In this document: one piece after another, positions 15,624 through 45,394 of the stretch
Layout of the letters: the number at the start of each line of letters is the position of its first letter
Numbering within the stretch: the first letter of the stretch is position 1
NCBI RefSeq assembly: GCF_013122565.1
Contig: NZ_CP053258.1
Strand: one strand, 5' to 3'
From: Escherichia coli
Lineage (GTDB): Bacteria; Pseudomonadota; Gammaproteobacteria; Enterobacterales; Enterobacteriaceae
Length of the DNA: 64,000 bases
Notes under the pieces: model-generated
Database searches by the model: none
The model's input: only the letters and a program-made list of their open reading frames with translations
Told to the model about the DNA's origin: nothing
Position numbers and translations under genes: made by a program

Positions 15624-15878
15624 TCACATCTCGATTTCAATATCGCCTTTTGCCCGGCAACAACAGGGCAAAATTTCCCCCGGCTGAATAAAGGCTAACG
15701 GTTCGGCAATCCAGTCCACCTGACCTGCAACCAGGCGTGTGCGACAGGAGCCGCAGTAACCTTCGCGACACTGGTACTCAACCGCCACATTGTGGGATTC
15801 CAGCGCCGCCAGAAGAGAAGGGTGTTCATCCTGGCACAGCAGTTGTGTGCCAGTGATGCGCAGGGTAACGCGGGCCAT
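15624..15878 (-). CDS. yfaE: 2Fe-2S ferredoxin associated with ribonucleotide reductase
   Basis: 84 aa with CxxxxCxxC...C cluster; start overlaps nrdB stop by 1 nt. Confidence 0.88.
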   Translation of the reverse strand: MARVTLRITGTQLLCQDEHPSLLAALESHNVAVEYQCREGYCGSCRTRLVAGQVDWIAEPLAFIQPGEILPCCCRAKGDIEIEM

Positions 15879-17008
15879 CAGAGCTGGAAGTTACTCAAAT
15901 CGTCGGTGTCCACTTCCGCGTCAATCTGCCCGACCAGATAAGAACTGACTTCCACTTCCTGCGGAGCAACCTGCACGTTATCGGACACCAGCCAGGTGTT
16001 GATCCACGGGATCGGGTTGGAGCGAGTCTGGAACGGCAGATCCAAACCGACCGCCTGCATACGGATATTGGTGATGTACTCAACGTACTGGCAGAGAATG
16101 TCTTTATTCAGACCAATCATCGAACCGTCGCGGAACAGATAATCCGCCCAGTCTTTCTCCTGTTGAGCTGCCTGAACAAACAGGTCATAGCACTCCTGCT
16201 TACACTCTTCGGCAATTTCCGCCATCTCCGGATCATCTGCGCCGCTGCGCAGCAGATTCAGCATATGCTGAGTACCGGTCAGGTGCAGGGCTTCGTCGCG
16301 GGCAATCAGGCGAATAATTTTGGCGTTGCCTTCCATCAGTTCGCGTTCTGCAAAGGCAAAGGAGCAAGCAAAGCTGACGTAGAAACGAATCGCTTCCAGC
16401 GCGTTAACGCTCATCAGGCAGAGATACAGTTTTTTCTTCAGCTCGCGCAGGCTAACGGTTACGGTTTTACCGTTAACGGTGTGGGTGCCTTCGCCCAGAA
16501 GGTGCCAGTAGCTGGTCATTTCGATCAGTTCATCGTAATAGCTGGAGATCCCTTCCGCACGTTTCTGGATCTGCTCGTTGGTGACGATATCGTCAAACAC
16601 AACAGACGGATCGTTAATGATATTACGAATGATATGAGTATAGGAGCGGGAATGAATCGTTTCTGAGAACGCCCAGGTTTCGACCCAGGTTTCCAGTTCC
16701 GGGATCGAGATCAGCGGCAGCAGTGCCACGTTCGGGCTACGACCCTGAATGGAGTCCAGCAGCGTCTGATATTTCAGGTTGCTGATAAAGATGTGTTTTT
16801 CGTGTTCAGGCAGTGCCTGGTAATCGATACGGTCGCGAGAAACGTCAACTTCTTCCGGACGCCAGAAGAAAGAGAGCTGCTTTTCGATCAGCTTTTCGAA
16901 GATGTCATATTTTTGCTGATCGTAGCGAGCCACGTTGACCGGCTGACCAAAAAACATCGGTTCTTTAAGCTGATCATTTTTCGTCTGTGAAAAAGTGGTA
17001 TATGCCAT
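15878..17008 (-). CDS. nrdB: Class Ia ribonucleotide reductase beta subunit
   Basis: 376 aa, R2 family. Confidence 0.95.
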
Positions 17009-17096: not shown

Positions 17097-19382
17097 TCAG
17101 ATCTTACATGCGCCGCTTTCGCAGCCATCGTCCTGGATTGACGGCACCAGATCGTCCTGCGCGTCTTCAGCGCCGTCACGGGTGTTCTGATAATACAGCG
17201 TTTTGACCCCGAATTTGTAGGCGGTGAGCAGGTCTTTCAGCAGTTGCTGCATCGGCACTTTTCCTGACGGGAAGCGTGACGGATCGTAGTTGGTGTTGGC
17301 AGAGATCGACTGATCGATAAATTTCTGCATGATACCCACCAGTTGCAGATAACCATCGTTACCCGGCATTTCCCACAGCAGCTCATAAGCGTCGTGCAGG
17401 TGCTCGTAGTCCGGCACCACCTGGCGCAGAATACCGTCTTTCGACGCTTTGATGCTGACGTAACCGCGCGGCGGTTCAATACCGTTGGTGGCGTTAGAGA
17501 TCTGCGAAGAAGTCTCGGACGGCATCAGGGCAGAAAGCGTGGAGTTACGCAGGCCGTGCGTTTTGATTGATTCACGCAATGCTTCCCAGTCGTAATGCAG
17601 CGGCTCATTAGCGATGGCATCCAGATCTTTCTTATAGGTATCGATCGGCAGGATCCCTTTCGCGTAAGTGGTTTCGTTAAACCACGGGCACGCGCCTTGC
17701 TCTTTCGCCAGCTCGTTAGACGCTTTCAGCAGGTAATACTGAATCGCTTCGAAGGTTTTATGCGTCAGGTTGTTGGCGCTGCCGTCGGAGTAGCGTTTAC
17801 CGTGCTTCGCCAGGTAGTAAGCGAAGTTGATCACACCAATACCCAGCGTACGACGACCCATCGCTCCACGTTTGGCGGCCGGGATCGGGTAATCCTGATA
17901 ATCAAGCAGCGCGTCAAGTGCACGAACCGCCAGAATCGCCAGCTCTTCCAGTTCATCCAGGCTATTAATTGCGCCCAGGTTGAAAGCAGACAGCGTACAC
18001 AGCGCGATTTCACCGTTCTCGTCGTTGACGTCGTTCAGCGGTTTGGTCGGCAGGGCAATTTCCAGGCACAGGTTAGACTGGCGCACTGGCGCGATGGCCG
18101 GATCAAACGGGCTATGGGTATTGCAGTGGTCAACGTTCTGAATATAGATACGACCGGTAGACGCACGTTCCTGCATCATCAGCGAGAACAGCTCAACGGC
18201 TTTCACACGCTGCTTGCGGATGCTGTCGTCTTTCTCATATTTGGTATACAGGCGTTCAAACTCTTCCTGATCGGCGAAGAACGCGTCGTACAGCCCCGGT
18301 ACGTCGGACGGGCTGAACAGGGTGATATCTTCACCTTTCAGCAGGCGGGTATACATCAGTTTGTTGATTTGTACCCCGTAGTCCATATGACGCACGCGGT
18401 TGCCTTCAACCCCACGGTTGTTTTTCAACACCAGCAGGCTTTCCACTTCCAGATGCCACATCGGGTAGAACAGCGTTGCCGCACCGCCGCGCACACCGCC
18501 CTGAGAGCAGGATTTCACCGCTGTCTGGAAATGTTTGTAGAACGGGATACAGCCGGTATGGAACGCTTCGCCACCGCGAATCGGGCTACCCAGCGCACGA
18601 ATACGTCCGGCGTTGATGCCGATCCCGGCACGCTGGGAAACATATTTCACAATCGCGCTGGAGGTGGCGTTGATGGAATCCAGGCTGTCACCGCACTCGA
18701 TCAGTACGCAGGAGCTGAACTGACGAGTCGGGGTACGCACGCCGGACATGATTGGCGTCGGCAGCGAAATTTTAAATGTGGAAACCGCGTCGTAAAAACG
18801 CTTCACATATTGCAGGCGCGTTTCACGCGGGTAGTTCGAGAACAGGCACGCAGCAACCAGAATATAAAGGAACTGGGCGCTCTCATAGATTTCGCCGGTC
18901 ACACGGTTCTGTACCAGATATTTCCCTTCCAGCTGCTTAACGGCAGCATAAGAGAAGGTCATATCACGGTCGTGATCGATAAACGTGTCCATCTGCTTGA
19001 ACTCTTCTTCCGTGTAGTCTTCCAGCAGATGATTATCGTATTTGCCCATCTCGACCATTTTCACCACATGGTCGTACAGCGCAGGCGGCTCAAACTGGCC
19101 GTAGGCTTTTTTACGCAGGTGGAAGATCGCCAGGCGCGCGGCGAGATACTGATAATCCGGCGCATCACGGGAGATCAGGTCTGCGGCAGCCTTGATAATG
19201 GTTTCGTGGATGTCAGAGGTCTTGATACCGTCATAAAACTGAATGTGGGAGCGCAGCTCGACCTGGGAAATCGAAACGTTATGCAGTCCTTCTGCCGCCC
19301 AATCCAGAACGCGATGGATTTTGTCGAGATTGATGCGCTCTGTGCTACCGTCGCGCTTTGTCACCAGCAGATTCTGATTCAT
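17097..19382 (-). CDS. nrdA: Class Ia ribonucleotide reductase alpha subunit
   Basis: 761 aa with N-terminal ATP-cone; the 625-aa plus-strand ORF inside it is antisense artefact. Confidence 0.95.
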   Translation of the reverse strand: MNQNLLVTKRDGSTERINLDKIHRVLDWAAEGLHNVSISQVELRSHIQFYDGIKTSDIHETIIKAAADLISRDAPDYQYLAARLAIFHLRKKAYGQFEPPALYDHVVKMVEMGKYDNHLLEDYTEEEFKQMDTFIDHDRDMTFSYAAVKQLEGKYLVQNRVTGEIYESAQFLYILVAACLFSNYPRETRLQYVKRFYDAVSTFKISLPTPIMSGVRTPTRQFSSCVLIECGDSLDSINATSSAIVKYVSQRAGIGINAGRIRALGSPIRGGEAFHTGCIPFYKHFQTAVKSCSQGGVRGGAATLFYPMWHLEVESLLVLKNNRGVEGNRVRHMDYGVQINKLMYTRLLKGEDITLFSPSDVPGLYDAFFADQEEFERLYTKYEKDDSIRKQRVKAVELFSLMMQERASTGRIYIQNVDHCNTHSPFDPAIAPVRQSNLCLEIALPTKPLNDVNDENGEIALCTLSAFNLGAINSLDELEELAILAVRALDALLDYQDYPIPAAKRGAMGRRTLGIGVINFAYYLAKHGKRYSDGSANNLTHKTFEAIQYYLLKASNELAKEQGACPWFNETTYAKGILPIDTYKKDLDAIANEPLHYDWEALRESIKTHGLRNSTLSALMPSETSSQISNATNGIEPPRGYVSIKASKDGILRQVVPDYEHLHDAYELLWEMPGNDGYLQLVGIMQKFIDQSISANTNYDPSRFPSGKVPMQQLLKDLLTAYKFGVKTLYYQNTRDGAEDAQDDLVPSIQDDGCESGACKI

Positions 19383-19458
19383 GTATGTCGTACCTGTTTT
19401 TGGAATTCTTTCCGCAATAGTTTCATGCAGACTACCTGTAGTACGGGAGGCTGCTTAG

Positions 19459-19506
19459 AACACTATATATAGGGGGTATGTTTGGGATTCACTGCAAGAT
19501 AGTGTG
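19459..19506 (-). promoter_or_regulatory. Two NrdR-box-like palindromes in the nrdAB promoter/leader
   Basis: cactatatatag core at 19461-19472 and cactgcaagatagtgtg at 19490-19506, centres about 31 bp apart. Confidence 0.5.
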
Positions 19507-19535
19507 AAAATGGCCCTCTTGCAAGTGCATAACTT

Positions 19536-19544
19536 TGTGGATAA
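19536..19544 (-). promoter_or_regulatory. DnaA box (TTATCCACA on minus strand)
   Basis: Perfect 9-mer upstream of the nrdA promoter region. Confidence 0.5.
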
Positions 19545-20077
19545 CTCAGGAAGGAAAAAGTGGCTTTCGCGCACCTTAGGTCAGACAAGGTGTCCGGGAA
19601 AGTCAATGGGAAGAGAAAAATTTGTTAAAAATAACTGTTCGGCGATTTCTTGAACGGCAGAATAGGTTGGATAAATTGATATAGATGGTTTATTAATCTT
19701 TTTGCTAATGATTGCAAAAATTGATCTAAGCACGAGTCATCACATAATCTGATGTATCAGTTGTGGTCAATATATAAGCGAATGTAAGCGATTGTTGATG
19801 TCGAAATGGTTGTTTTCTATTCGGTTGTTGTTAAATGCTAAGCCATTTTGTTAATTTACCTTATATTATAAGAAAATTATTGATTACTTTAATTCAGTTT
19901 AAATATAACTGATATCCCTAAAGGTTATTAACTTGAATTATGACGCATTGATATTATTCATCAAATAATAACAAAATAGCCATTGCACCGCGTTGAACAA
20001 TTTACAAAAGAAAGAAAAACCTTATTGCATAATACGTTTAAATACGCCGTCTTATATAAAATGATGGTCAGATTAAT

Positions 20078-23000
20078 ATGCGAGTTATCTTTCTACGCAA
20101 GGAGTATTTATCTTTACTCCCGTCAATGATTGCGTCTCTCTTCTCAGCTAATGGCATTGCGGCAGTCACTGATTCATGCCAGGGATATGATATCAAAGCG
20201 AGTTGCCAGGCCAGCAGGCAAAGCCTTTCAGGCATTACGCAGGACTGGAGTATCGCCGATGGGCAATGGCTGGTTTTTTCGGATATGACCAATAACGCCA
20301 GCGGTGGGGCCGTATTTTTGCAACAAGGAGCGAAATTTACATTATCACCAGAAAACGAAACTGGAATGACTCTGTTTGCCAATAACACCGTTACAGGAGA
20401 ATATAATAACGGCGGGGCCATATTTGCTAAAGAAAACTCAACGCTGAATCTTACTGATGTTATTTTTTCCGGTAACGTCGCAGGCGGCTATGGTGGCGCA
20501 ATCTATTCTTCTGGTACTAATGATACTGGTGCCGTCGATTTAAGTGTCACTAACGCCATGTTTCGCAATAACATCGCTAATGATGGCAAAGGTGGCGCAA
20601 TTTATACCATTAATAATGACGTCTATTTAAGTGATGTTATTTTTGATAACAACCAGGCATATACATCAACAAGTTACAGTGATGGCGATGGCGGGGCAAT
20701 CGATGTTACCGATAATAATAGCGACAGCAAGCATCCTTCAGGTTATACGATAATAAATAACACCGCCTTTACAAATAACACAGCCGAAGGTTATGGCGGG
20801 GCGATATATACCAATAGCGCGACGGCTCCCTATCTTATTGATATTTCTGTTGATGACAGCTACAGCCAGAACGGCGGCGTGTTAGTCGATGAGAACAATA
20901 GCGCAGCAGGCTATGGAGAGGGTCCTTCCACTGCGGCGGGTGGCTTTATGTATCTCGGCTTAAGTGAAGTTACCTTTGATATTGCCGACGGAAAAACGCT
21001 GGTTATCGGCAATACAGAGAATGACGGAGCTGTTGACTCTATTGCTGGTACCGGGTTGATCACCAAAACAGGTTCCGGCGATCTGGTACTTAATGCAGAT
21101 AACAATGACTTTACTGGTGAGATGCAGATTGAAAACGGTGAAGTTATCCTGGGCCGCAGCAACTCACTGATGAATGTCGGAGATAGTCATTGCCAGGACG
21201 ATCCGCAACACTGCTACGGTCTGACGATAGGGAGTATTGATAAGTACCAGAATCAGGCAGAACTAAATGTTGGCTCCACCCAACAAACCTTTGTGCACTC
21301 ATTGACGGGCTTTCAGAATGGCACTTTAAATATCGATGCTGGTGGCAACGTTACTGTTAATCAGGGCAGTTTTGCTGGCACCATCGAAGGTGCTGGTCAG
21401 CTCACCATTGCGCAAAACGGCAGCTACGTGCTGGCAGGGGCGCAGTCAATGGCGCTAACTGGCGATATAGTGGTGGATGATGGCGCGGTGCTTTCGCTGG
21501 AAGGCGACGCGGCAGATCTTGCCGCTCTCCAGGACGATCCGCAGTCGATCGTGTTAAACGGCGGTGTGCTCGATCTCTCTGATTTCTCCACCTGGCAGAG
21601 CGGTACATCATACAACGATGGCCTTGAAGTCAGCGGCAGCAGCGGAACGGTTATCGGCAGTCAGGATGTGGTAGATCTTGCAGGCGGAAACGATATGCAT
21701 ATCGGCGGTGACGGGAAAGATGGCGTCTACGTGGTGGTGGATGCGGGCGACGGGCAGGTCAGCCTGGCAAATGACAATCAATACCTCGGCACAACGCAAA
21801 TTGCTTCCGGTACGCTGATGGTGAGCGACAACACGCAGCTTGGAGATACCCATTATAACCGCCAGGTTATCTTTACTGATAATCAACAAGAAAGCGTGAT
21901 GGAGATTACTGCCAATGTCGATACTCGTTCTACAACGGCTGAGCATGGGCGTGATATTGAAATGCGCGCCGACGGTGAAGTGGCAGTTGATGCGGGGGTA
22001 GACACGCAGTGGGGCGCACTGATGGCTGACAGCAGCAGGCAACATCAGGATGAGGGTAGCACATTGACTAAAACGGGGGCGGGTACACTTGAGCTGACCG
22101 CCAGCGGTACAACGCAGTCAGCGGTACGTGTCGAAGAAGGCTCCCTGAAAGGTGATGTTGCGGATATCTTCCCTTATGCTTCGTCGCTGTGGGTCGGTGA
22201 CGGGGCAACGTTCGTTACTGGCGCGGATCAGGATATTCAGTCAATTGATGCTACTTCCAGCGGCACTATCGACATCAGCGATGGTACGGTTTTGCGCCTG
22301 ACCGGGCAGGATACTTCCGTCGCCCTTAATGCCTCACTGTTTAACGGCGATGGGACGCTGGTGAATATCACCGATGGCGTGACGTTGACAGGTGAGCTTA
22401 ATACCAACCTTGAAACTGACAGCCTGACCTATCTTGCCGACGTGACGGTTAATGGTGATCTGACCAATACGTCCGGTGCGGTTAGCCTGCAAAATGGCGT
22501 CGTTGGCGATACGCTGACGGTAAACGGTGATTACACCGGCGGCGGTACGTTACTGCTCGACAGCGAATTAAACGGCGATGACTCAGCAAGCGACCAGTTG
22601 GTGTTGAACGGTAATACTGCTGGCAATACCACGGTTGTGATTAATCCCATTACAGGGATTGGTGAGCCGACATCTACAGGCATTAAAGTGGTTGATTTCG
22701 CAGCTGATCCCACGCAGTTTCAAAACAATGCGCAGTTCAGTCTGGCAGGCAGTGGCTACGTCAACATGGGAGCGTATGACTACACGCTGGTGGAAGATAA
22801 CAACGACTGGTATCTGCGATCGCAAGAAGTAACGCCGCCATCGCCACCTGATCCAGACCCGACTCCCGATCCTGATCCTTCGCCGGATCCTGATCCAACA
22901 CCCGACCCGGCCCCTACGCCTGCCTACAAGCCAGTGTTGAATGCCAAAGTTGGTGGATATTTTAATAACCTGCGGGCGGCAAATCAGGCGTTTATGATGG

Positions 23001-23830
23001 AGCGACGCGATCACGCTGGTGGCGATGGTCAGACGCTGAATTTACGTGTTATCGGCGGAGATTATCATTACACAGCAGCGGGGCAACTGGCTCAGCATGA
23101 AGACACTTCTACAGTGCAGCTTAGCGGCGACCTGTTTAGCGGGCGCTGGGGGGATAATGGCGAGTGGATGCTTGGGGCGGTTGGTGGCTACAGTGATAAT
23201 CAGGGCGACAGCCGCTCGAATCTGACCGGAACTCGCGCCGATAACCAGAACCACGGTTATGCCGTTGGGCTGACCTCAAGCTGGTTTCAGCACGGTAAGC
23301 AGAAGCAGGGGGCCTGGCTGGATAGCTGGCTGCAATACGCGTGGTTTAGCAACGATGTTTCCGAACAAGACGATGGCGCGGATCATTACCATTCGTCGGG
23401 AATTATTGCTTCTCTGGAAGCGGGGTATCAGTGGTTACCGGGGCATGGTGTGGTGATTGAACCGCAGGCGCAGGTGATTTATCAGGGCGTGCAACAGGAT
23501 GATTTTACCGCCGCTAACCATGCGCGCGTGTCACAATCGCAGGGTGATGATATTCAAACGCGGCTGGGTTTACACAGCGAATGGCGTACCGCTGTTCATG
23601 TCATACCAACATTAGATCTGAATTATTATCACGATCCGCATTTGGCAGAAATTGAAGAAGATGGCAGCACTATCAGTGACGATGCGGTGAAGCAACGGGG
23701 TGAAATAAAAGTGGGAGTCACGGGCAATATCAGTCAGCGAGTCTCGCTGCGCGGCAGCGTGGCGTGGCAGAAAGGGAGTGATGATTTTGCCCAGACGGCA
23801 GGGTTTTTATCGATGACGGTGAAATGGTAA
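20078..23830 (+). CDS. yfaL: AIDA-I-type autotransporter adhesin
   Basis: 1250 aa; N-terminal signal; repetitive Gly/Asn/Thr-rich passenger; Pro-rich PDPDPTPDP linker; C-terminal beta-barrel domain. Confidence 0.85.
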   Translation: MRVIFLRKEYLSLLPSMIASLFSANGIAAVTDSCQGYDIKASCQASRQSLSGITQDWSIADGQWLVFSDMTNNASGGAVFLQQGAKFTLSPENETGMTLFANNTVTGEYNNGGAIFAKENSTLNLTDVIFSGNVAGGYGGAIYSSGTNDTGAVDLSVTNAMFRNNIANDGKGGAIYTINNDVYLSDVIFDNNQAYTSTSYSDGDGGAIDVTDNNSDSKHPSGYTIINNTAFTNNTAEGYGGAIYTNSATAPYLIDISVDDSYSQNGGVLVDENNSAAGYGEGPSTAAGGFMYLGLSEVTFDIADGKTLVIGNTENDGAVDSIAGTGLITKTGSGDLVLNADNNDFTGEMQIENGEVILGRSNSLMNVGDSHCQDDPQHCYGLTIGSIDKYQNQAELNVGSTQQTFVHSLTGFQNGTLNIDAGGNVTVNQGSFAGTIEGAGQLTIAQNGSYVLAGAQSMALTGDIVVDDGAVLSLEGDAADLAALQDDPQSIVLNGGVLDLSDFSTWQSGTSYNDGLEVSGSSGTVIGSQDVVDLAGGNDMHIGGDGKDGVYVVVDAGDGQVSLANDNQYLGTTQIASGTLMVSDNTQLGDTHYNRQVIFTDNQQESVMEITANVDTRSTTAEHGRDIEMRADGEVAVDAGVDTQWGALMADSSRQHQDEGSTLTKTGAGTLELTASGTTQSAVRVEEGSLKGDVADIFPYASSLWVGDGATFVTGADQDIQSIDATSSGTIDISDGTVLRLTGQDTSVALNASLFNGDGTLVNITDGVTLTGELNTNLETDSLTYLADVTVNGDLTNTSGAVSLQNGVVGDTLTVNGDYTGGGTLLLDSELNGDDSASDQLVLNGNTAGNTTVVINPITGIGEPTSTGIKVVDFAADPTQFQNNAQFSLAGSGYVNMGAYDYTLVEDNNDWYLRSQEVTPPSPPDPDPTPDPDPSPDPDPTPDPAPTPAYKPVLNAKVGGYFNNLRAANQAFMMERRDHAGGDGQTLNLRVIGGDYHYTAAGQLAQHEDTSTVQLSGDLFSGRWGDNGEWMLGAVGGYSDNQGDSRSNLTGTRADNQNHGYAVGLTSSWFQHGKQKQGAWLDSWLQYAWFSNDVSEQDDGADHYHSSGIIASLEAGYQWLPGHGVVIEPQAQVIYQGVQQDDFTAANHARVSQSQGDDIQTRLGLHSEWRTAVHVIPTLDLNYYHDPHLAEIEEDGSTISDDAVKQRGEIKVGVTGNISQRVSLRGSVAWQKGSDDFAQTAGFLSMTVKW

Positions 23831-23853
23831 TCGCATCTCACCAGGCATCACTG

Positions 23854-23935
23854 CCGGATGCGGCGTAAACGCCTTATCTGGCCTACGGAGAGCATTTGTA
23901 GGCCTGATAAGACGCGGCAAGCGTCGCATCAGGCA
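23854..23935. repeat. BIME: two inverted REP units between yfaL and ubiG
   Basis: gccggatgcggcgtaaacgccttatctggcctac and gtaggcctgataagacgcggcaagcgtcgcatcaggc. Confidence 0.7.
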
Positions 23936-23957
23936 TTGGCGCGGCCAAACATCAACC

Positions 23958-24680
23958 TCACTTATTCTGCGTGTGCAGCATATAGTTCACATCCACGCCG
24001 GGGCCGAGCTTAAAGGAATTAGTGATCGGGTTGTAATGCAGCCCAGTCATATGCCGCTCTTTAAGGCTTGTCTGATCCACCCAGCCAAGCAGCTCTGCCG
24101 GTTTAATAAACTTCTTCACATCATGCGTGCCTTTGGGCACCATGCGCAAAATATATTCCGCGCCAACCACCGCCATCAGCCATGACTTGCCGTTGCGGTT
24201 AAGCGTCGAGAAAAAGACATCGCCGCCCGGTTTCACCAGTTGCGCACAGGCTCTGACCACTGACTGCGGATCGGGAACGTGCTCCAGCATCTCCATGCAG
24301 GTCACCACATCATACTGCCCGGCATGTTTTGCCGCGTGCTCTTCCACGGTTTCCTGCACGTAATCCACCTGAATGCCGCTTTCCAGTGCGTGCAGTTTTG
24401 CCACCTGCAATGGCTCAAAGCCCATATCCAGACCGGTCACCGTCGCGCCTTCGCGCGCCATACTCTCGGCCAGAATGCCGCCGCCACAACCGACATCGAG
24501 CACCTTTTTGCCAAATAAACCGCCAGCACGCTCGGCAATATAGCCCAGACGCAGCGGGTTAATGCGGTGCAGCGGTTTGAACTCACCTTCAAGATCCCAC
24601 CAGCGGGAGGCAACGGCTTCAAATTTAGCGATCTCTTCGTGGTCTACGTTATGGTTTACCGGCGATTTTTCGGCATTCAT
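23958..24680 (-). CDS. ubiG: Ubiquinone biosynthesis O-methyltransferase
   Basis: 240 aa from ATG 24680 (MNAEKSPV); SAM-binding VLDVGCGGG motif. Confidence 0.92.
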
Positions 24681-24826
24681 TGGCACTTCTACTCCGTAAT
24701 TGGCAAGACAAACGAGTATATCAGGCATTGGATGTGAATAAAGCGTATAGGTTTACCTCAATCTGCGCGGCTGTGTTATAATTTGCGACCTTTGAATCCG
24801 GGATACAGTAGAGGGATAGCGGTTAG

Positions 24827-27454
24827 ATGAGCGACCTTGCGAGAGAAATTACACCGGTCAACATTGAGGAAGAGCTGAAGAGCTCCTATCTGGATTATGC
24901 GATGTCGGTCATTGTTGGCCGTGCGCTGCCAGATGTCCGAGATGGCCTGAAGCCGGTACACCGTCGCGTACTTTACGCCATGAACGTACTAGGCAATGAC
25001 TGGAACAAAGCCTATAAAAAATCTGCCCGTGTCGTTGGTGACGTAATCGGTAAATACCATCCCCATGGTGACTCGGCGGTTTATGACACGATCGTCCGTA
25101 TGGCGCAGCCATTCTCGCTGCGTTACATGCTGGTAGACGGTCAGGGTAACTTCGGTTCCATCGACGGCGACTCTGCGGCGGCAATGCGTTATACGGAAAT
25201 CCGTCTGGCGAAAATTGCCCATGAACTGATGGCCGATCTCGAAAAAGAGACGGTCGATTTCGTTGATAACTATGACGGCACGGAAAAAATTCCCGACGTC
25301 ATGCCAACCAAAATTCCTAACCTGCTGGTGAACGGTTCTTCCGGTATCGCCGTAGGTATGGCAACCAACATCCCGCCGCACAACCTGACGGAAGTCATCA
25401 ACGGTTGTCTGGCGTATATCGATGATGAAGACATCAGCATTGAAGGGCTGATGGAACACATCCCGGGGCCGGACTTCCCGACGGCGGCAATCATTAACGG
25501 TCGTCGCGGTATTGAAGAAGCTTACCGTACCGGTCGCGGCAAGGTATATATCCGCGCCCGTGCTGAAGTGGAAGTTGACGCCAAAACCGGACGTGAAACC
25601 ATTATCGTCCACGAAATTCCGTATCAGGTAAACAAAGCGCGCCTGATCGAGAAGATTGCGGAACTGGTAAAAGAAAAACGCGTGGAAGGCATCAGCGCGC
25701 TGCGTGACGAGTCTGACAAAGACGGTATGCGCATCGTGATTGAAGTGAAACGCGATGCGGTCGGTGAAGTTGTGCTCAACAACCTCTACTCCCAGACCCA
25801 GTTGCAGGTTTCTTTCGGTATCAACATGGTGGCATTGCACCATGGTCAGCCAAAGATCATGAACCTGAAAGACATCATCGCGGCGTTTGTTCGTCACCGC
25901 CGTGAAGTGGTGACCCGTCGTACTATTTTCGAACTGCGTAAAGCTCGCGATCGTGCTCATATCCTTGAAGCATTAGCCGTGGCGCTGGCGAACATCGACC
26001 CGATCATCGAACTGATCCGTCATGCGCCGACGCCTGCAGAAGCGAAAACTGCGCTGGTTGCTAATCCGTGGCAGCTGGGTAACGTTGCCGCCATGCTCGA
26101 ACGTGCGGGCGACGATGCTGCGCGTCCGGAATGGCTGGAGCCAGAGTTCGGCGTGCGTGACGGTCTGTACTACCTGACCGAACAGCAAGCCCAGGCAATT
26201 CTGGATCTGCGTTTGCAGAAACTGACCGGCCTTGAGCACGAAAAACTGCTCGACGAATACAAAGAGCTGCTGGATCAGATCGCGGAACTGTTGCGTATTC
26301 TTGGTAGCGCCGATCGTCTGATGGAAGTGATCCGCGAAGAGCTGGAGCTGGTTCGTGAACAGTTCGGTGACAAACGTCGTACTGAAATCACCGCCAACAG
26401 CGCAGACATCAACCTGGAAGATCTGATCACCCAGGAAGATGTGGTCGTGACGCTCTCTCACCAGGGCTACGTTAAATATCAGCCGCTTTCTGAATACGAA
26501 GCGCAGCGTCGTGGCGGGAAAGGTAAATCTGCCGCACGTATTAAAGAAGAAGACTTTATCGACCGACTGCTGGTGGCGAACACGCACGATCATATCCTGT
26601 GCTTCTCCAGCCGTGGTCGCGTCTATTCGATGAAAGTTTATCAGTTGCCAGAAGCCACTCGTGGTGCGCGCGGTCGTCCGATCGTCAACCTGCTGCCGCT
26701 GGAGCAGGACGAACGTATCACCGCGATCTTGCCGGTGACCGAGTTTGAAGAAGGCGTGAAAGTCTTCATGGCGACCGCTAACGGTACCGTGAAGAAAACT
26801 GTCCTCACCGAATTCAACCGTCTGCGTACCGCCGGTAAAGTGGCGATCAAACTGGTTGAAGGCGATGAGTTGATCGGCGTTGACCTGACCAGTGGCGAAG
26901 ATGAAGTAATGCTGTTCTCCGCCGAAGGTAAAGTGGTGCGCTTTAAAGAGTCTTCTGTCCGTGCGATGGGCTGCAATACCACTGGTGTGCGCGGTATTCG
27001 CTTAGGCGAAGGCGATAAAGTCGTCTCTCTGATCGTGCCTCGTGGCGATGGCGCAATCCTCACCGCAACGCAAAACGGTTATGGTAAGCGTACCGCAGTG
27101 GCGGAATACCCAACCAAGTCGCGTGCGACGAAAGGGGTTATCTCCATCAAGGTTACCGAACGTAACGGTTTAGTGGTTGGCGCGGTGCAGGTAGATGACT
27201 GCGACCAGATCATGATGATCACCGATGCCGGTACGCTGGTACGTACTCGCGTTTCGGAAATCAGCATCGTGGGCCGTAACACCCAGGGCGTGATCCTCAT
27301 CCGTACTGCGGAAGATGAAAACGTAGTGGGTCTGCAACGTGTTGCTGAACCGGTTGACGAGGAAGATCTGGATACCATCGACGGCAGTGCCGCGGAAGGG
27401 GACGATGAAATCGCTCCGGAAGTGGACGTTGACGACGAGCCAGAAGAAGAATAA
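24827..27454 (+). CDS. gyrA: DNA gyrase subunit A
   Basis: 875 aa; [15 protein letters not shown]; acidic C-terminal tail. Confidence 0.97.
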
Positions 27455-27496: not shown

Positions 27497-27602
27497 AATT
27501 GAAAAGTCCAGGCTGCAAAGTCTGGGCTTTTGTCGTATTAGGGCGCGGTAAAGTTTGGCTGTGCCCGTAAAAAATGGCTGGCTATACACAAGGAATGTGG
27601 CA

Positions 27603-34449
<6,847 letters not shown>

Positions 34450-36099
34450 GTGAACTGGCGCAGAATCGTCTGGCTATTGGCGTTGGTTACTCAGCCAACG
34501 CTTGCGGAGGAGACGCCGTTACAACTGGCGCTGCGGGGCGCGCAGCACGATCAACTGTATCGGCTGTCGTCATCAGGCGTGACCAAAGTCTCGGCATTAC
34601 CTGACACGCTCACCACGCCGTTAGGGAGTTTGTGGAAACTGTATGTTTACGCCTGGCTGGAGGATACCCATCAACCGGAGCAGCCCTACCAGTGTCGCGG
34701 AAACTCCCCGGAAGAGGTTTATTGTTGTCAGGCTGGGGAGAGCATAACGCGCGATACCGCGCTGGTACGTTCCTGTGGGCTCTATTTTGCGCCGCAGCGG
34801 TTGCATATTGGCGCAGATGTGTGGGGGCAATACTGGCAACAGCGTCAGGCACCTGCGTGGTTAGCGTCTCTTACTACGCTGAAGCCAGAAACCTCGGTAA
34901 CGGTTAAATCGCTGCTTGATTCATTAGCGACGTTACCTGCGCAAAACAAAGCTCAGGAAGTCTTACTGGATGTGGTGCTGGACGAGGCGAAAATCGGTGT
35001 CGCATCCATGCTCGGTAGTCGGGTACGGGTGAAAACCTGGAGCTGGTTTGCCGATGATAAACAGGAAATCCGTCAGGGTGGTTTTGCTGGCTGGTTAACC
35101 GATGGTACACCGCTGTGGGTTACTGGCAGTGGCACCAGCAAAACGGTACTAACCCGTTATGCGACGGTGCTTAATCGGGTTTTGCCAGTGCCGACGCAGG
35201 TTGCCAGTGGGCAATGTGTAGAGGTGGAGCTGTTTGCCCGCTATCCGCTGAAGAAAATCACAGCGGAAAAGAGTACGACGGCAGTAAAACCCGGCGTACT
35301 TAATGGGCGCTATCGTGTGACATTTGCCAATGGTAACCACATTACGTTTGTCAGCCACGGTGAGACGACCTTACTGAGCGAAAAGGGCAAACTGAAATTG
35401 CAGTCGCATCTCGATCGTGAAGAGTATGTTGCCAGAGTTCTGGATCGCGAGGCGAAAAGTACGCCACCTGAGGCAGCGAAAGCCATGACCGTGGCGATAC
35501 GCACTTTTTTACAGCAAAACGCCAATCGGGAAGGCGATTGCCTGACCATCCCTGACAGCAGCGCCACGCAGCGTGTTTCGGCTTCGCCAGCGACCACGGG
35601 GGCGCGAACGATGACCGCCTGGACGCAGGATCTCATCTATGCGGGCGATCCGGTTCATTATCACGGCAGTCGCGCTAGCGAAGGGACGCTTTCCTGGCGG
35701 CAAGCCACGGCCCAGGCGGGGCAGGGAGAGCGTTACGACCAGATACTCGCGTTTGCTTATCCCGACAACAGCCTTAGCCGCTGGGGAGCGCCACGCTCAA
35801 CCTGCCAGTTATTACCCAAAGCGAAAGCCTGGCTGGCGAAAAAAATGCCGCAGTGGCGGCGTATATTACAAGGCGAGACAGGGTACAACGAACCAGACGT
35901 GTTTGCGGTCTGTCGTTTAGTCTCAGGTTTCCCCTATACCGATCGGCAGCAGAAACGGCTGTTTATTCGTAACTTCTTTACGCTTCAGGATCGGCTGGAT
36001 TTAACCCATGAGTATCTGCACCTGGCCTTTGATGGTTATCCCACCGGGCTTGATGAGAACTATATCGAAACGCTGACCCGACAATTATTAATGGACTAA
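34450..36099 (+). CDS. yfaQ: DUF2300-family exported protein
   Basis: 549 aa; GTG start immediately after yfaS TAA stop; signal peptide. Confidence 0.75.
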   Translation: MNWRRIVWLLALVTQPTLAEETPLQLALRGAQHDQLYRLSSSGVTKVSALPDTLTTPLGSLWKLYVYAWLEDTHQPEQPYQCRGNSPEEVYCCQAGESITRDTALVRSCGLYFAPQRLHIGADVWGQYWQQRQAPAWLASLTTLKPETSVTVKSLLDSLATLPAQNKAQEVLLDVVLDEAKIGVASMLGSRVRVKTWSWFADDKQEIRQGGFAGWLTDGTPLWVTGSGTSKTVLTRYATVLNRVLPVPTQVASGQCVEVELFARYPLKKITAEKSTTAVKPGVLNGRYRVTFANGNHITFVSHGETTLLSEKGKLKLQSHLDREEYVARVLDREAKSTPPEAAKAMTVAIRTFLQQNANREGDCLTIPDSSATQRVSASPATTGARTMTAWTQDLIYAGDPVHYHGSRASEGTLSWRQATAQAGQGERYDQILAFAYPDNSLSRWGAPRSTCQLLPKAKAWLAKKMPQWRRILQGETGYNEPDVFAVCRLVSGFPYTDRQQKRLFIRNFFTLQDRLDLTHEYLHLAFDGYPTGLDENYIETLTRQLLMD

Positions 36100-36103
36100 T
36101 GCT

Positions 36104-36880
36104 ATGCGAAAGATTTTTCTTCCGTTGTTACTGGTGGCGCTTTCGCCTGTCGCTCACAGTGAAGGTGTGCAGGAAGTCGAGATTGATGCACCGCTCTCTG
36201 GCTGGCATCCGGCAGAGGGCGAAGATGCCAGTTTTTCACAATCGATCAATTACCCGGCGTCGTCCGTCAACATGGCAGATGATCAAAATATCTCAGCGCA
36301 GATCCGCGGCAAAATAAAAAATTATGCTGCGGCGGGTAAGGTTCAGCAGGGCCGGCTGGTGATCAACGGTGCCAGTATGCCGCAGAGAATTGAATCCGAT
36401 GGTTCATTTGCACGCCCTTATATTTTCACTGAAGGCAGCAACAGCGTGCAGGTCATCAGCCCGGATGGGCAAAGCCGACAAAAAATGCAGTTTTACTCAA
36501 CGCCGGGTACAGGAACGATTCGTGCACGTTTACGGCTGGTTCTCTCGTGGGATACGGACAATACCGATCTCGATCTCCATGTTGTCACGCCCGATGGCGA
36601 ACACGCCTGGTACGGTAACACCGTGCTGAAAAACAGTGGTGCACTGGATATGGATGTCACGACGGGGTACGGACCCGAGATTTTCGCCATGCCAGCACCA
36701 GTTCACGGGCGCTATCAGGTGTATATCAACTACTATGGTGGGCGCAGCGAAACGGAATTAACCACCGCCCAACTGACGCTGATCACCGATGAAGGATCGG
36801 TCAATGAGAAACAGGAAACATTTATTGTACCGATGCGTAATGCTGGCGAGCTGACGCTGGTGAAAAGTTTTGACTGGTGA
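36104..36880 (+). CDS. yfaP: DUF2135-family exported protein
   Basis: 258 aa; ATG 4 nt after yfaQ stop; signal peptide. Confidence 0.8.
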   Translation: MRKIFLPLLLVALSPVAHSEGVQEVEIDAPLSGWHPAEGEDASFSQSINYPASSVNMADDQNISAQIRGKIKNYAAAGKVQQGRLVINGASMPQRIESDGSFARPYIFTEGSNSVQVISPDGQSRQKMQFYSTPGTGTIRARLRLVLSWDTDNTDLDLHVVTPDGEHAWYGNTVLKNSGALDMDVTTGYGPEIFAMPAPVHGRYQVYINYYGGRSETELTTAQLTLITDEGSVNEKQETFIVPMRNAGELTLVKSFDW

Positions 36881-36934
36881 TCCATCCCTTCACACAACCT
36901 GGCGCTCTCTTTTTTCAGATAAGACTGCTGGGCG

Positions 36935-36978
36935 ATCTGCCGACGCCAGGATATAACCATTAACAAGCGTCGGCAGAT
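36935..36978. other. Perfect 12-bp inverted repeat with 20-nt loop at the yfaP-rcsC junction
   Basis: atctgccgacgc ... gcgtcggcagat. Confidence 0.6.
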
Positions 36979-37151
36979 TGGTCATTTCTTATTCGTACTG
37001 AGAACTGTCCATTTACTCTGGCTTTCCTGGTTAAGGCAATGGTTTCCAAGCGATACGCATTATTGCAATGGTGACAGAACATTGCGGTAACACGCTTTTA
37101 CCGCTACCTTAACCACACTCCATCGGTCACCTGAGGCGGAGCTTCGCCCCT

Positions 37152-40001
37152 TTGAAATACCTTGCTTCTTTTCGTACAACCCTGAAAGCCTCGCGCTACA
37201 TGTTCAGAGCATTGGCGTTAGTGCTCTGGCTGTTGATTGCTTTTTCATCCGTTTTTTACATCGTTAATGCGTTACATCAGCGAGAATCGGAAATTCGTCA
37301 GGAATTTAATCTGAGTTCCGATCAGGCTCAGCGCTTTATTCAACGCACCTCTGATGTGATGAAAGAGCTGAAGTACATCGCTGAAAATCGCTTATCGGTA
37401 GAAAACGGTGTGCTTTCCCCGCGTGGACGAGAAACGCAGGCAGATGTGCCTGCGTTTGAACCGCTGTTTGCCGACTCCGATTGTTCCGCAATGAGTAACA
37501 CCTGGCGAGGTTCTCTGGAGTCATTGGCGTGGTTTATGCGCTACTGGCGCGATAATTTTTCTGCGGCTTACGATCTCAACCGGGTATTTTTAATCGGCAG
37601 CGATAACCTCTGCATGGCCAATTTCGGTCTGCGTGATATGCCAGTGGAACGCGATACCGCGTTGAAAGCTTTGCATGAACGCATCAATAAATATCGAAAT
37701 GCACCACAAGATGATAGCGGCAGTAACCTCTACTGGATCAGCGAAGGTCCGCGCCCTGGCGTCGGGTATTTTTACGCGTTGACGCCAGTTTATCTGGCGA
37801 ACCGGTTGCAGGCGCTTTTGGGTGTCGAGCAAACCATCCGGATGGAGAACTTTTTCTTACCGGGTACGTTGCCGATGGGGGTTACCATTCTTGATGAAAA
37901 TGGTCATACCCTGATTTCGCTTACCGGACCAGAAAGCAAAATTAAGGGCGATCCTCGCTGGATGCAGGAACGCTCCTGGTTTGGCTATACGGAAGGGTTC
38001 CGGGAGCTGGTGCTGAAGAAAAATCTGCCACCCTCATCGCTAAGCATCGTGTATTCGGTGCCGGTTGATAAGGTGCTGGAACGCATTCGCATGTTGATCC
38101 TTAACGCAATTTTGCTGAATGTGCTTGCCGGAGCTGCATTGTTTACTCTCGCGCGGATGTACGAGCGACGTATTTTCATTCCGGCGGAAAGCGACGCCCT
38201 GCGACTGGAAGAACATGAGCAGTTCAATCGCAAGATTGTCGCCTCCGCGCCAGTGGGTATCTGCATTTTGCGTACCGCTGATGGCGTCAATATTTTAAGT
38301 AACGAACTGGCGCATACCTATCTCAATATGCTTACGCATGAGGACCGCCAACGACTGACGCAAATTATCTGTGGGCAGCAGGTCAATTTTGTTGATGTCC
38401 TGACCAGCAACAATACCAATCTGCAAATCAGCTTCGTCCATTCGCGCTATCGTAATGAAAACGTGGCCATTTGTGTGCTGGTGGATGTTTCTTCGCGCGT
38501 GAAGATGGAAGAGTCGTTGCAGGAGATGGCACAAGCAGCGGAACAGGCGAGCCAGTCAAAATCGATGTTCCTTGCCACCGTCAGTCATGAGCTGCGAACG
38601 CCGCTGTATGGCATTATCGGTAACCTGGATCTTTTGCAAACCAAAGAGTTACCGAAAGGCGTCGATCGTCTGGTGACGGCAATGAACAACTCTTCCAGCC
38701 TGTTGTTGAAAATTATCAGCGATATTCTCGATTTCTCGAAGATTGAATCGGAACAGTTGAAGATCGAACCGCGTGAGTTTTCACCGCGTGAAGTGATGAA
38801 CCACATCACCGCCAACTATTTACCGCTGGTGGTACGCAAGCAGTTAGGCTTGTACTGCTTTATTGAACCGGATGTGCCAGTGGCCTTAAATGGCGACCCG
38901 ATGCGTTTACAGCAGGTCATCTCCAACCTGTTGAGTAACGCCATAAAATTCACCGATACCGGCTGTATAGTTTTGCATGTCCGCGCTGATGGCGATTATC
39001 TCTCTATCCGTGTTCGCGATACCGGCGTGGGGATCCCGGCGAAAGAAGTGGTGCGCTTGTTTGATCCCTTCTTCCAGGTCGGAACGGGCGTACAGCGAAA
39101 CTTCCAGGGGACCGGTCTGGGTCTGGCGATTTGTGAAAAACTGATCAGCATGATGGACGGCGACATCTCGGTAGATTCAGAACCGGGAATGGGCAGCCAG
39201 TTTACCGTGCGTATTCCGTTGTACGGCGCTCAGTACCCGCAGAAAAAAGGCGTGGAAGGGTTGAGTGGTAAACGCTGCTGGCTGGCGGTCCGCAATGCGT
39301 CACTCTGTCAGTTCCTGGAAACCAGTTTGCAGCGCAGCGGCATCGTCGTAACAACATACGAAGGGCAGGAACCGACTCCCGAAGATGTGTTAATCACTGA
39401 CGAGGTAGTGAGTAAAAAATGGCAGGGCAGAGCGGTAGTGACCTTCTGTCGTCGACATATTGGTATTCCGCTGGAGAAAGCGCCAGGGGAGTGGGTACAC
39501 AGTGTGGCTGCTCCGCATGAGCTACCGGCATTGTTGGCGCGTATTTATTTGATCGAGATGGAGAGCGACGATCCTGCTAACGCTCTGCCGTCGACGGACA
39601 AAGCGGTCAGCGATAATGACGATATGATGTTTCTGGTCGTGGATGATCATCCGATTAACCGACGTCTGCTGGCAGATCAGTTGGGATCGTTGGGCTATCA
39701 ATGTAAAACCGCGAATGATGGCGTCGATGCGCTTAATGTACTTAGCAAGAATCATATTGATATCGTGCTTAGCGACGTCAACATGCCAAATATGGATGGT
39801 TACCGCTTGACGCAACGCATTCGTCAGTTGGGACTGACGTTGCCGGTAATCGGAGTAACTGCTAATGCGTTGGCTGAAGAGAAGCAGCGGTGTCTGGAGT
39901 CCGGTATGGACAGCTGCCTGTCGAAGCCGGTAACGCTGGATGTGATAAAACAGACGCTGACGGTATATGCCGAGAGGGTCAGGAAATCGCGGGAATCGTA
40001 G
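37152..40001 (+). CDS. rcsC: Rcs phosphorelay hybrid sensor histidine kinase
   Basis: 949 aa; HisKA H-box (SHELRTPL), HATPase and C-terminal receiver domain; apparent TTG start. Confidence 0.92.
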   Translation: MKYLASFRTTLKASRYMFRALALVLWLLIAFSSVFYIVNALHQRESEIRQEFNLSSDQAQRFIQRTSDVMKELKYIAENRLSVENGVLSPRGRETQADVPAFEPLFADSDCSAMSNTWRGSLESLAWFMRYWRDNFSAAYDLNRVFLIGSDNLCMANFGLRDMPVERDTALKALHERINKYRNAPQDDSGSNLYWISEGPRPGVGYFYALTPVYLANRLQALLGVEQTIRMENFFLPGTLPMGVTILDENGHTLISLTGPESKIKGDPRWMQERSWFGYTEGFRELVLKKNLPPSSLSIVYSVPVDKVLERIRMLILNAILLNVLAGAALFTLARMYERRIFIPAESDALRLEEHEQFNRKIVASAPVGICILRTADGVNILSNELAHTYLNMLTHEDRQRLTQIICGQQVNFVDVLTSNNTNLQISFVHSRYRNENVAICVLVDVSSRVKMEESLQEMAQAAEQASQSKSMFLATVSHELRTPLYGIIGNLDLLQTKELPKGVDRLVTAMNNSSSLLLKIISDILDFSKIESEQLKIEPREFSPREVMNHITANYLPLVVRKQLGLYCFIEPDVPVALNGDPMRLQQVISNLLSNAIKFTDTGCIVLHVRADGDYLSIRVRDTGVGIPAKEVVRLFDPFFQVGTGVQRNFQGTGLGLAICEKLISMMDGDISVDSEPGMGSQFTVRIPLYGAQYPQKKGVEGLSGKRCWLAVRNASLCQFLETSLQRSGIVVTTYEGQEPTPEDVLITDEVVSKKWQGRAVVTFCRRHIGIPLEKAPGEWVHSVAAPHELPALLARIYLIEMESDDPANALPSTDKAVSDNDDMMFLVVDDHPINRRLLADQLGSLGYQCKTANDGVDALNVLSKNHIDIVLSDVNMPNMDGYRLTQRIRQLGLTLPVIGVTANALAEEKQRCLESGMDSCLSKPVTLDVIKQTLTVYAERVRKSRES

Positions 40002-40200
40002 GACGGATAAGGTGTTTATGCCGCATCTGGCATTCAGTGCAAATGCCAGATGCGACGCTGACGCGTCTTATCTGGCCTACTTTAATGTAATCTGTTGAAA
40101 TAATGGGAATCGTAGGACGGATAAGGCGTTTACGCCGCATCCGGCAATCGGTGCAAATGCCAGATAAGACACTAACTAGTCTTATCTGGCCTACATCTGG
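39991..40200. repeat. Tandem duplication (period 114 bp) of a REP-containing unit
   Basis: gggaatcgtaggacggataagg occurs at 39991 and 40105, each followed by REP palindromes; the first copy includes the last 11 nt of rcsC. Confidence 0.7.
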
Positions 40201-40211
40201 CCTACAGATGA

Positions 40212-40862
40212 TTAGTCTTTATCTGCCGGACTTAAGGTCACAGAAGAGAGATAATTCAGCAGGGCGATATCGTTCTCGACACCCAGCTTCATCATCGCAG
40301 ATTTCTTCTGGCTACTGATGGTTTTAATACTGCGGTTCAGCTTTTTAGCGATCTCGGTCACCAGGAAGCCTTCCGCAAACAGGCGCAGAACTTCACTCTC
40401 TTTTGGCGAGAGACGCTTGTCACCGTAACCACCAGCACTGATTTTTTCCAACAGGCGAGAAACGCTTTCCGGGGTAAATTTCTTCCCTTTCTGCAGCGCG
40501 GCGAGAGCTTTCGGCAGATCGGTCGGTGCACCTTGTTTCAGCACGATCCCTTCAATATCCAGATCCAATACCGCACTAAGAATCGCCGGGTTGTTGTTCA
40601 TAGTCAGAACAATGATCGACAGGCTTGGGAAATGGCGCTTGATGTACTTGATTAAGGTAATACCATCGCCGTACTTATCGCCAGGCATGGAGAGATCGGT
40701 AATCAACACATGCGCATCCAGTTTCGGCAGGTTGTTGATCAGTGCTGTAGAGTCTTCAAATTCGCCGACAACATTCACCCACTCAATTTGCTCAAGTGAT
40801 TTGCGAATACCGAACAAGACTATCGGATGGTCATCGGCAATAATTACGTTCATATTGTTCAT
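40212..40862 (-). CDS. rcsB: Rcs response regulator (LuxR/FixJ family)
   Basis: 216 aa from ATG 40862 (MNNMNVIIADDHPIV); receiver domain plus C-terminal HTH. Confidence 0.95.
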   Translation of the reverse strand: MNNMNVIIADDHPIVLFGIRKSLEQIEWVNVVGEFEDSTALINNLPKLDAHVLITDLSMPGDKYGDGITLIKYIKRHFPSLSIIVLTMNNNPAILSAVLDLDIEGIVLKQGAPTDLPKALAALQKGKKFTPESVSRLLEKISAGGYGDKRLSPKESEVLRLFAEGFLVTEIAKKLNRSIKTISSQKKSAMMKLGVENDIALLNYLSSVTLSPADKD

Positions 40863-40878
40863 GTAATAGGCTACCTTG

Positions 40879-43551: not shown

Positions 43552-43863
43552 TCGTGTTTATGACCTGTTAAAACTTCGCGAAGTGATAGGGCAGTATAAA
43601 GGGTACAGTGTGAAATTCCAGACTCTTACCTGATTGATGATTCTCTATTCTCCCGTGATATTTAACATCCTGTATGGGGGGAAATAGATGTACAAGCGCC
43701 ATTTTGCTGTACAAATAACCTACGAAAAGCCCAACGAAATAAATTGCAAATAAACGAAGATTGCTGGAAATTATGCTGATGTTAATTATTTGTGAAATAG
43801 TTAACAAGCGTTATAGTTTTTCTGTGGTAGCACAGAATAATGAAAAGTGTGTAAAGAAGGGTA

Positions 43864-43956
43864 AAAAAAAACCGGATGCGAGGCATCCGGTTGAAATAGG
43901 GGTAAACAGACATTCAGAAATGAATGACGGTAATAAATAAAGTTAATGATGATAGC
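43864..43956 (-). ncRNA. micF: MicF antisense sRNA
   Basis: Minus strand reads gctatcatcattaactttatttattaccgtcattcatttctgaatgtctgtttacccc...aaccggatgcctcgcatccggtttttttt, the MicF sequence with its terminator hairpin, divergent from ompC. Confidence 0.85.
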
Positions 43957-44111
43957 GGGAGTTATTCTAGTTGCGAGTGAAGGTTTTGTTTTGACATTCA
44001 GTGCTGTCAAATACTTAAGAATAAGTTATTGATTTTAACCTTGAATTATTATTGCTTGATGTTAGGTGCTTATTTCGCCATTCCACAATAATCTTAAAAA
44101 GTTCCCTTGAA

Positions 44112-44171
44112 TTTACATTTTGAAACATCTATAGCGATAAATGAAACATCTTAAAAGTTTTAGTATCATAT
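44112..44171 (+). promoter_or_regulatory. OmpR-binding region (C1-C3) of the ompC promoter
   Basis: tttacattttgaaacatcta / tagcgataaatgaaacatct / taaaagttttagtatcatat, matching the ompC upstream repeats as I recall. Confidence 0.65.

Positions 44172-44275: not shown

Positions 44276-45394
<1,119 letters not shown>

Follow-up and report, generated by a model that had tools for sequence, protein, structure and literature searches.

AT-rich DNA between yfaL and nrdAB in Escherichia coli: a catalogued H-NS-bound promoter island that probably keeps an adhesin gene cryptic

Introduction

The adhesin gene yfaL of Escherichia coli is preceded by DNA that is far richer in A+T than its surroundings and that lies in a divergent spacer shared with the essential housekeeping operon nrdAB. 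This raises the question of what the AT-rich DNA does and to which of the two neighbors it belongs. We examined the locus in a stretch of 64,000 nucleotides (the window; assembly GCF_013122565.1, contig NZ_CP053258.1), the orientation of which is reversed relative to K-12. The genes that frame the locus, assigned from the open reading frame list and the K-12 annotation and in the case of yfaL from a protein family match, are:

15878-17008, minus strand: nrdB
17097-19382, minus strand: nrdA, the divergent neighbor of yfaL
20078-23830, plus strand: yfaL/ehaC, AIDA-I family autotransporter adhesin (NCBIfam equivalog YfaL/EhaC, 2777 bits, full length)
23958-24728, minus strand: ubiG
24827-27454, plus strand: gyrA

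Window positions convert to K-12 coordinates as U00096.3 = 2364247 - window and U00096.2 = 2362269 - window. The offset was checked by the positions of nrdA and ypaB in NC_000913.3 and in the supplement of Kim et al. 2012. The linear conversion breaks between yfaL and ompC (window ~27500 to 40900), where about 7 kb of K-12 is seemingly missing from the window; in K-12 atoS occupies the position predicted for ompC.

Results

Composition of the interval

A composition scan gave an A+T content of 71.1% for the interval 19600-20077, against 47.9% across the 64-kb window. This bears out a preliminary description, made from the letters of the window, which had reported some 480 bp of strongly AT-rich DNA upstream of yfaL. 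Among 478-bp stretches the interval is the extreme of the window, about 5 SD over the mean; equally AT-rich 478-bp windows make up 0.02% of all, and every one of them overlaps it. Followed at 50-bp intervals, A+T climbs from 0.46-0.56 to reach 0.68 at ~19600, peaks at 0.84 at ~19850 and returns to 0.58-0.54 at ~20100-20125, so the edges given in the preliminary description were accurate, and its yfaL start at 20078 was correct as well. TpA steps amount to 11.7% in the interval and 4.3% in the window (2.7-fold), and A/T tracts of at least four occur at 21 per kb versus 9 per kb (~2.3-fold). High A+T and TpA-richness are features that the interval shares with H-NS-silenced (xenogeneic) regions. 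Low G+C (38-49%) also extends over the 5' ~800 bp of yfaL.

The interval forms the yfaL-proximal 478 bp, about two thirds, of the 695-bp divergent spacer between nrdA (minus strand) and yfaL (plus strand). Neither this sharing of the spacer with nrdA nor the overlap with the small open reading frame ypaB at 19600-19653 had been mentioned in the earlier account. The spacer is 99.9% identical to that of strain S10, and essentially every complete E. coli genome has it. The AT-rich core at 19657-20077 is a single-copy sequence in 5425 of the 5426 complete E. coli genomes and has no annotated feature beneath it. Tandem and direct repeats in the spacer are restricted to a 10-bp duplication and weak AT-rich pairs.

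Conserved nrdAB regulatory DNA and its boundary

The nrdA side of the spacer carries the following features:

19489, minus strand: nrdA transcription start with a 107-nt 5' UTR (start-site table of Kim et al. 2012, U00096.2 2342780 (+))
19510-19653, plus strand: ypaB, annotated small open reading frame of 47 aa that overlaps the nrd promoter
19525-19546, minus strand: two DnaA boxes forming direct repeat D2, GTGCATAACT / GTGGATAACT, just upstream of the nrd -35 (repeat search)
19600-19656, minus strand: distal conserved nrdAB upstream region (12-species alignment), outside the yfaL-linked block
19657-20077, no strand assigned: core AT-rich block, ~72% A+T, yfaL-linked, with the cluster of promoter-like sites; putative main H-NS platform

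With the nrdA start at 19489, the AT-rich interval begins just 111 bp upstream of it. An alignment of 12 Enterobacterales showed that the NrdR boxes, the DnaA-box region, the ATTGAC element and the GAAGAAATC sequence with its T-run are present in all aligned species, out to ~19656. The arrangement GAAGAAATC...TTTTT...ATTGAC is kept upstream of nrdA with or without yfaL. A G-N13-C motif in 19600-19656 we take to be Fis-like, judged by the Fis consensus. At 19600-19656, its first 57 bp, the interval consists of conserved nrd upstream DNA together with the 3' end of ypaB. If conservation regardless of yfaL is taken as the mark of an nrd activator region, these 57 of the 478 bp have it and 19657-20077 does not.

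In the same alignment the upstream homology common to enterobacteria stops at ~19656. Past this point species without yfaL enter the ubiG terminator, and Escherichia enters the AT-rich block. We compared 80 Enterobacterales nrdA loci. About 70 of them have gyrA, ubiG and nrdA side by side, and ubiG is there separated from nrdA by ~350-600 bp of 54-61% A+T. Out of ~75 informative loci, five have yfaL between ubiG and nrdA: E. coli/Escherichia (locus L004), E. albertii, a Pseudocitrobacter MAG, strain RIT691 and Rahnella bonaserana. Orthologues of b2232 and b2234 occur in K. pneumoniae, and none of b2233. The island DNA is thereby associated with a horizontally acquired gene, as most promoter islands are. 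On the yfaL-ubiG side, a search for insertion scars of the yfaL module gave REP-like palindromes and no target duplication; the whole convergent spacer from the yfaL stop codon to that of ubiG (window ~23840-23945) is filled with these palindromes.

Identity to the window differs on the two sides of the boundary:

nrdA and 19383-19656: K-12 99%; B2 strain 96-98%; L004 96-97%
19657-20077: K-12 91-97%; B2 strain 83-92%; L004 58-72%
yfaL: K-12 94-97%; B2 strain 73-81%; L004 72-75%

The block thus diverges alongside the yfaL allele and not with nrdA, which argues that it belongs to the yfaL module. The gene itself is a hypervariable surface-protein locus between core genes, with alleles that are deeply divergent within Escherichia.

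The literature on the nrd promoter suggests a different owner of the AT-rich DNA. The operon is regulated by DnaA (PMC8203912), and H-NS is a repressor of class Ia nrdAB (PMC4009431). The titles of Sun et al. (1994) and of Jacobson & Fuchs (1998) state that cell-cycle regulation of nrd requires AT-rich DNA upstream and a 45-bp inverted repeat. Two candidates for such an element are present here, the conserved T-rich run at ~19605-19640 and an imperfect inverted repeat of ~45 bp at 19686-19732. The latter is one candidate for the '45 bp inverted repeat' in the title of Jacobson & Fuchs 1998. The AT-rich DNA might accordingly serve mainly nrdAB, as an AT-rich/inverted-repeat element with Fis sites for activation and cell-cycle timing. 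Those titles, the short distance to the nrdA start, the position of the repeat and the conservation of 19600-19656 across enterics fit this proposal. Species without yfaL, however, have ubiG-nrdA spacers of ~350 bp with 55-61% A+T that contain the full conserved nrd block, and the other ~340 bp of the interval track the yfaL allele. Because the whole nrd block is kept in such ~350-bp spacers, nrd regulatory DNA should extend no more than 60-140 bp into the interval, and we regard nrdAB as the main beneficiary of the AT-rich DNA as improbable. The likeness to the known nrdAB regulatory region (DnaA boxes, Fis, IciA, NrdR boxes, AT-rich element, H-NS) holds for the left edge, 19600-19656, and possibly to ~19735; the difference is that the conserved part ends at ~19656 and that the bulk of the block is absent where yfaL is absent. 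Cendra et al. are said to have observed, in 2013, direct binding of H-NS to nrdAB regulatory fragments.

The annotated ypaB frame has CTG instead of ATG as its start codon in the B2 strain, and it has internal stops in E. albertii and in strain EC2001. Since start codon or frame is lost in several lineages, ypaB is doubtful as a real protein and is probably not a conserved one; judged from the alignments, it seems to be conserved as nrd regulatory DNA rather than as a protein. On the same strand, a 625-aa ATG-initiated open reading frame lies antisense to nrdA (17595-19472, plus strand), probably a shadow of the highly biased nrdA frame. Kim et al. 2012 list a weak antisense start inside nrdA (window 18870, plus strand; U00096.2 2343399 (-); 4 reads), assigned to ypaB with a 640-nt leader. 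Transcription from it would head toward the AT-rich block and yfaL.

DNA resembling the nrd promoter also occurs elsewhere. A stretch of ~115 bp in 235 plasmid records (L002 4001-4115) shares 78% identity with the segment of the nrd promoter at window 19506-19620, and a core of ~45 bp with the -35 and both DnaA boxes is near-identical. The core lies ~65 bp upstream of a gene for a DNA polymerase III theta (Hot-like) subunit. By gene content (Hot/theta homologue, HumD) these plasmids look P1-like, and it seems that a phage-plasmid borrowed a DnaA-controlled host promoter module.

A published promoter island bound by H-NS

Published K-12 data and a motif search place the following features on the interval:

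19593-20126, no strand assigned: projection of K-12 promoter island 2342143-2342676 (PMC3661553, Table 1 and Table S1)
19668-19677, plus strand: H-NS high-affinity motif TCGATAAATT, 9/10 match (consensus search)
20062-20123, no strand assigned: two overlapping GadX ChIP-exo peaks over the yfaL start codon (PMC4918353, supplementary table, U00096.2 2342146-2342207)

The region 2342143-2342676 (2342143_534; yfaL(-)/ypaB(-), U00096.2) is one of the 78 promoter islands in E. coli K-12 (Panyukov & Ozoline 2013, PMC3661553, Table 1 and Table S1). Such islands are defined by at least 8 PlatProm start points per 100-bp sliding window over at least 300 bp; they are bound by RNA polymerase, give almost no long transcripts, occur mostly with foreign genes, and all 78 are reported to be H-NS-bound (PMC3661553). 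The yfaL/ypaB island has H-NS category 'A', meaning that it was bound in the ChIP-chip sets of Grainger, Kahramanoglou and Oshima (PMC3661553). Furthermore, genomic SELEX placed an RpoD holoenzyme (sigma-70) site and an HNS mark in the yfaL-nrdA spacer (PMC3946193). The AT-rich interval is an already known, catalogued H-NS-bound promoter island.

The preliminary description had considered an AT-rich leader of this kind typical of surface factors silenced by H-NS. As to binding this agrees with the published data, the K-12 counterpart being bound in all three compiled studies (PMC3661553); the silencing itself we infer. The published binding concerns K-12, to which the block in the window is 91-97% identical. 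No published test of whether an hns mutation derepresses yfaL was found. The 9/10 motif match at 19668, the one in the AT-rich block, is weak evidence by itself, as TCGATAAATT-type matches of that quality occur 10 times in the window with 4.4 expected.

Other published protein sites lie at the margins of the block. The GadX peaks cover the yfaL start codon and were assigned neither a start site nor a regulatory effect (PMC4918353). A published RpoH SELEX peak projects to window ~19423 and published HusR boxes project to ~19580-19596, both in the nrd-proximal part of the spacer and outside the AT-rich block.

Promoter-like sites and transcription of yfaL

Two features of the block emerged from a consensus scan for sigma-70-like promoters:

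19721-19748, plus strand: best predicted promoter toward yfaL, TTGATC-16-CATAAT, ~330 nt upstream of the ATG
19721-19977, both strands: cluster of eight promoter-like sites, four on each strand

The scan covered 20 kb, and 8 of its 21 sites fall in 19721-19977. When the rule was re-implemented, site density came to 19 per kb in the block and 0.7 per kb in the window (~27-fold). Dinucleotide shuffles of the block gave 3.4 +/- 1.9 sites, and 9 of 500 shuffles reached the observed 8. Composition alone raises the density from 0.7 to about 8 per kb, ~40% of that in the block, and accounts for much, not all, of the enrichment. The hexamers of the best site are identical to those given for the yfaL direction in the RpoD SELEX table, TTGATC-16-CATAAT (PMC3946193). 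The only GATC of the spacer, at 19723, lies inside the -35 of this predicted promoter. It had been suggested that this DNA may hide an uncharacterised promoter; the dense promoter-like sites and the RNA polymerase binding in SELEX are there, but had already been described.

Little or no productive transcription from these sites was recorded within the data sets of Kim et al. 2012 and the GadX study and their growth conditions. The Kim et al. 2012 table contains rows for ubiG, ypaB, nrdA and nrdB and has no start site for yfaL/b2233 and none inside the block at 19657-20077. The GadX table lists no yfaL start either. The first of these maps, reportedly of 3,746 start sites, is shallow, so that absence from it is weak evidence. 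Reportedly, Roux et al. found yfaL to be cryptic in K-12 in 2005. A biofilm phenotype of yfaL was seen only after a constitutive promoter had been inserted directly before the ATG (PMC3764049). The conditional or cryptic expression of yfaL that had been supposed earlier is consistent with these data.

A retained A+T profile, curvature and the possibility of a passive relic

Two further features of the block were found by comparing haplotypes and by searching for repeats:

19686-19732, no strand assigned: imperfect inverted repeat of ~45 bp, DNA fold z = -1.8, coinciding with the strongest predicted curvature peak (19700-19725)
19764-19793, no strand assigned: best-conserved patch in the block, TGGTCAATATATAAGCGAATGTAAGCGATT, with a 10-bp tandem (invariant columns in six deep haplotypes including E. 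albertii and Pseudocitrobacter)

Along the spacer, successive A+T values are 0.58, 0.54, 0.63, 0.69, 0.72, 0.77 and 0.69 in the window and 0.57, 0.53, 0.66, 0.64, 0.74, 0.74 and 0.70 in L004. Although their sequences differ by 30-40%, the window, L004, E. albertii and Pseudocitrobacter have nearly equal profiles. A profile kept while the sequence diverged argues that composition is the maintained property. The yfaL spacers of RIT691 and Rahnella have an A+T content of only 57-58%, and AT-richness is thus not obligatory for yfaL. The patch at 19764-19793 is a candidate promoter or regulator site, proposed from its invariant columns. In E. coli EC2001 an IS5-family element (ISKpn26-like; L085 1373-2353) is inserted inside the block at ~window 19838. 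IS5 insertions in H-NS-bound DNA are known to activate silent operons elsewhere.

Helix-axis curvature was predicted with three dinucleotide wedge models. Local peaks at ~19620 and 19700-19725 appeared in all three, and the Bolshoy-Trifonov peak of 19.8 degrees per turn is near the window maximum. Dinucleotide shuffles of the block reached its mean curvature in 8 of 200 cases with the Bolshoy-Trifonov model and in 88 and 106 of 200 with the other two. The curved leader proposed in the preliminary description is therefore retained as local predicted peaks, but the block mean is within the shuffled range in two of three models. Curvature was rejected as a distinctive feature, since its elevation over the window was mostly compositional in the three models.

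Several of these results are what would be expected if the AT-richness were a passive relic of the DNA from which yfaL came, to which H-NS sticks while no function is maintained. Conservation of the block is poor (58-72% between deep haplotypes), composition by itself produces many promoter-like sites, curvature is mostly within shuffles, one strain carries an IS5-family element in it, and RIT691 and Rahnella manage without high A+T. On the other hand, the near-constant A+T profile points to compositional pressure, the promoter-like sites exceed what shuffling gives, the 19764-19793 patch is kept in all six haplotypes and the block is kept in all but one of the complete E. coli genomes. A passive relic is in our view unlikely.

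No sign of a small RNA or hidden gene

The preliminary description had also suggested that the AT-rich DNA may hide a small RNA, and the window offers a natural comparison in its second most AT-rich stretch:

43552-44290, divergent: ompC-micF-rcsD spacer, 68% A+T (composition scan)
43864-43957, minus strand: MicF (Rfam, 116.8 bits)

This spacer resembles that of yfaL in being divergent and AT-rich and in carrying an HNS mark in the SELEX table (PMC3946193). It differs in containing a real small RNA, whereas Rfam gave no match to the yfaL spacer, either at E <= 1 over 19000-20500 or at the gathering score over the whole window. Elsewhere in the window, Rfam naRNA4 (REP-derived nucleoid-associated RNA) has three matches, within 40001-40191 and 52085-52168. 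No terminator-like site was found in 19200-20300, and RNA folding of the putative yfaL leader and of the opposite strand was no better than shuffles (z = -0.40 and +0.14). The open reading frame list contains only short, unconserved frames in the block. With neither a family match nor the combination of promoter, terminator and conserved structure that a small RNA gene would have, and with the poor conservation of the block, the suggestion of a hidden small RNA found no support.

More broadly, the product of the block might be a small RNA or small protein that has escaped annotation, or else a long structured 5' leader of yfaL. Promoter-like sites are numerous on both strands, and the best one directed at yfaL would give a leader of ~330 nt; a 'ypaB' transcript on the yfaL strand was measured in the HusR study, and the comparable ompC-rcsD spacer does hold MicF. 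Against this stand the lack of Rfam matches, terminators and excess structure just described, the poor conservation, the absence of a start in the block from the Kim et al. 2012 map and, for a protein, the shortness of the frames and the broken state of ypaB in several lineages. We consider a product encoded by the block highly improbable.

Discussion

The reading that we prefer, to which we assign a probability of about 0.75, is that the AT-rich DNA belongs to the yfaL module and acts as an H-NS platform that keeps yfaL cryptic. The AT-rich DNA from 19657 to the yfaL start would have arrived as part of the yfaL module. H-NS would polymerise across the block, with its many TpA steps, and over the 5' part of yfaL, which is low in G+C, and the filament would render the promoter-like sites, which bind RNA polymerase, unproductive, so that the adhesin stays cryptic unless H-NS is displaced. 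Positioned beside the conserved distal activator region at 19600-19656, H-NS probably dampens nrdAB too. That H-NS binding silences yfaL, that it does so through a filament and that the same applies to the strain of the window are steps that we infer.

The locus shares with the promoter islands of Shavkunov et al. 2009 and PMC3661553 its AT-richness, H-NS binding, poor transcription and a neighboring gene predicted to be foreign, as well as dense predicted start points on both strands (PMC3661553). Nothing essential separates it from the published island (PMC3661553) apart from the window being another strain, 91-97% identical over the block. What sets the yfaL island apart from most promoter islands is that it directly borders the promoter of nrdAB, an essential housekeeping operon. 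An H-NS-occupied AT-rich region upstream of an adhesin or fimbrial gene is likewise seen at the ycgV, fimB/fimE/fimA and ecpR islands (PMC3661553), among which ycgV, also an autotransporter gene, is listed with an island of its own (PMC3661553). The H-NS-silenced adhesin and fimbrial loci differ from yfaL, for which no published hns derepression, anti-silencer or mapped promoter was found. Examples of xenogeneic silencing by H-NS are bgl and proU.

The first reading of the raw sequence was sound: from the letters alone it rediscovered a catalogued island in front of a cryptic adhesin gene. The comparison made here adds, at the level of sequence, the sharp junction at ~19656 and a hypervariable block in which A+T is kept while the sequence is not. 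Together they make the locus a clean natural example of a silencing platform in which composition, not sequence, is conserved.

The locus also raises the question of whether AT-rich DNA of foreign origin affects the essential nrdAB promoter beside it. A doubtful but consequential proposal is that the yfaL-borne AT-rich DNA was co-opted in Escherichia as distal regulatory DNA for nrdAB. If this were true, the ~45-bp repeat with the curvature peak at 19686-19732, as well as the H-NS filament nucleated in the block, would lie in foreign DNA that is missing in Salmonella-like and Klebsiella-like relatives. A xenogeneic silencing platform would then help to set the level of ribonucleotide reductase or its cell-cycle timing, and a mechanical coupling would exist between adhesin silencing and the supply of dNTPs.
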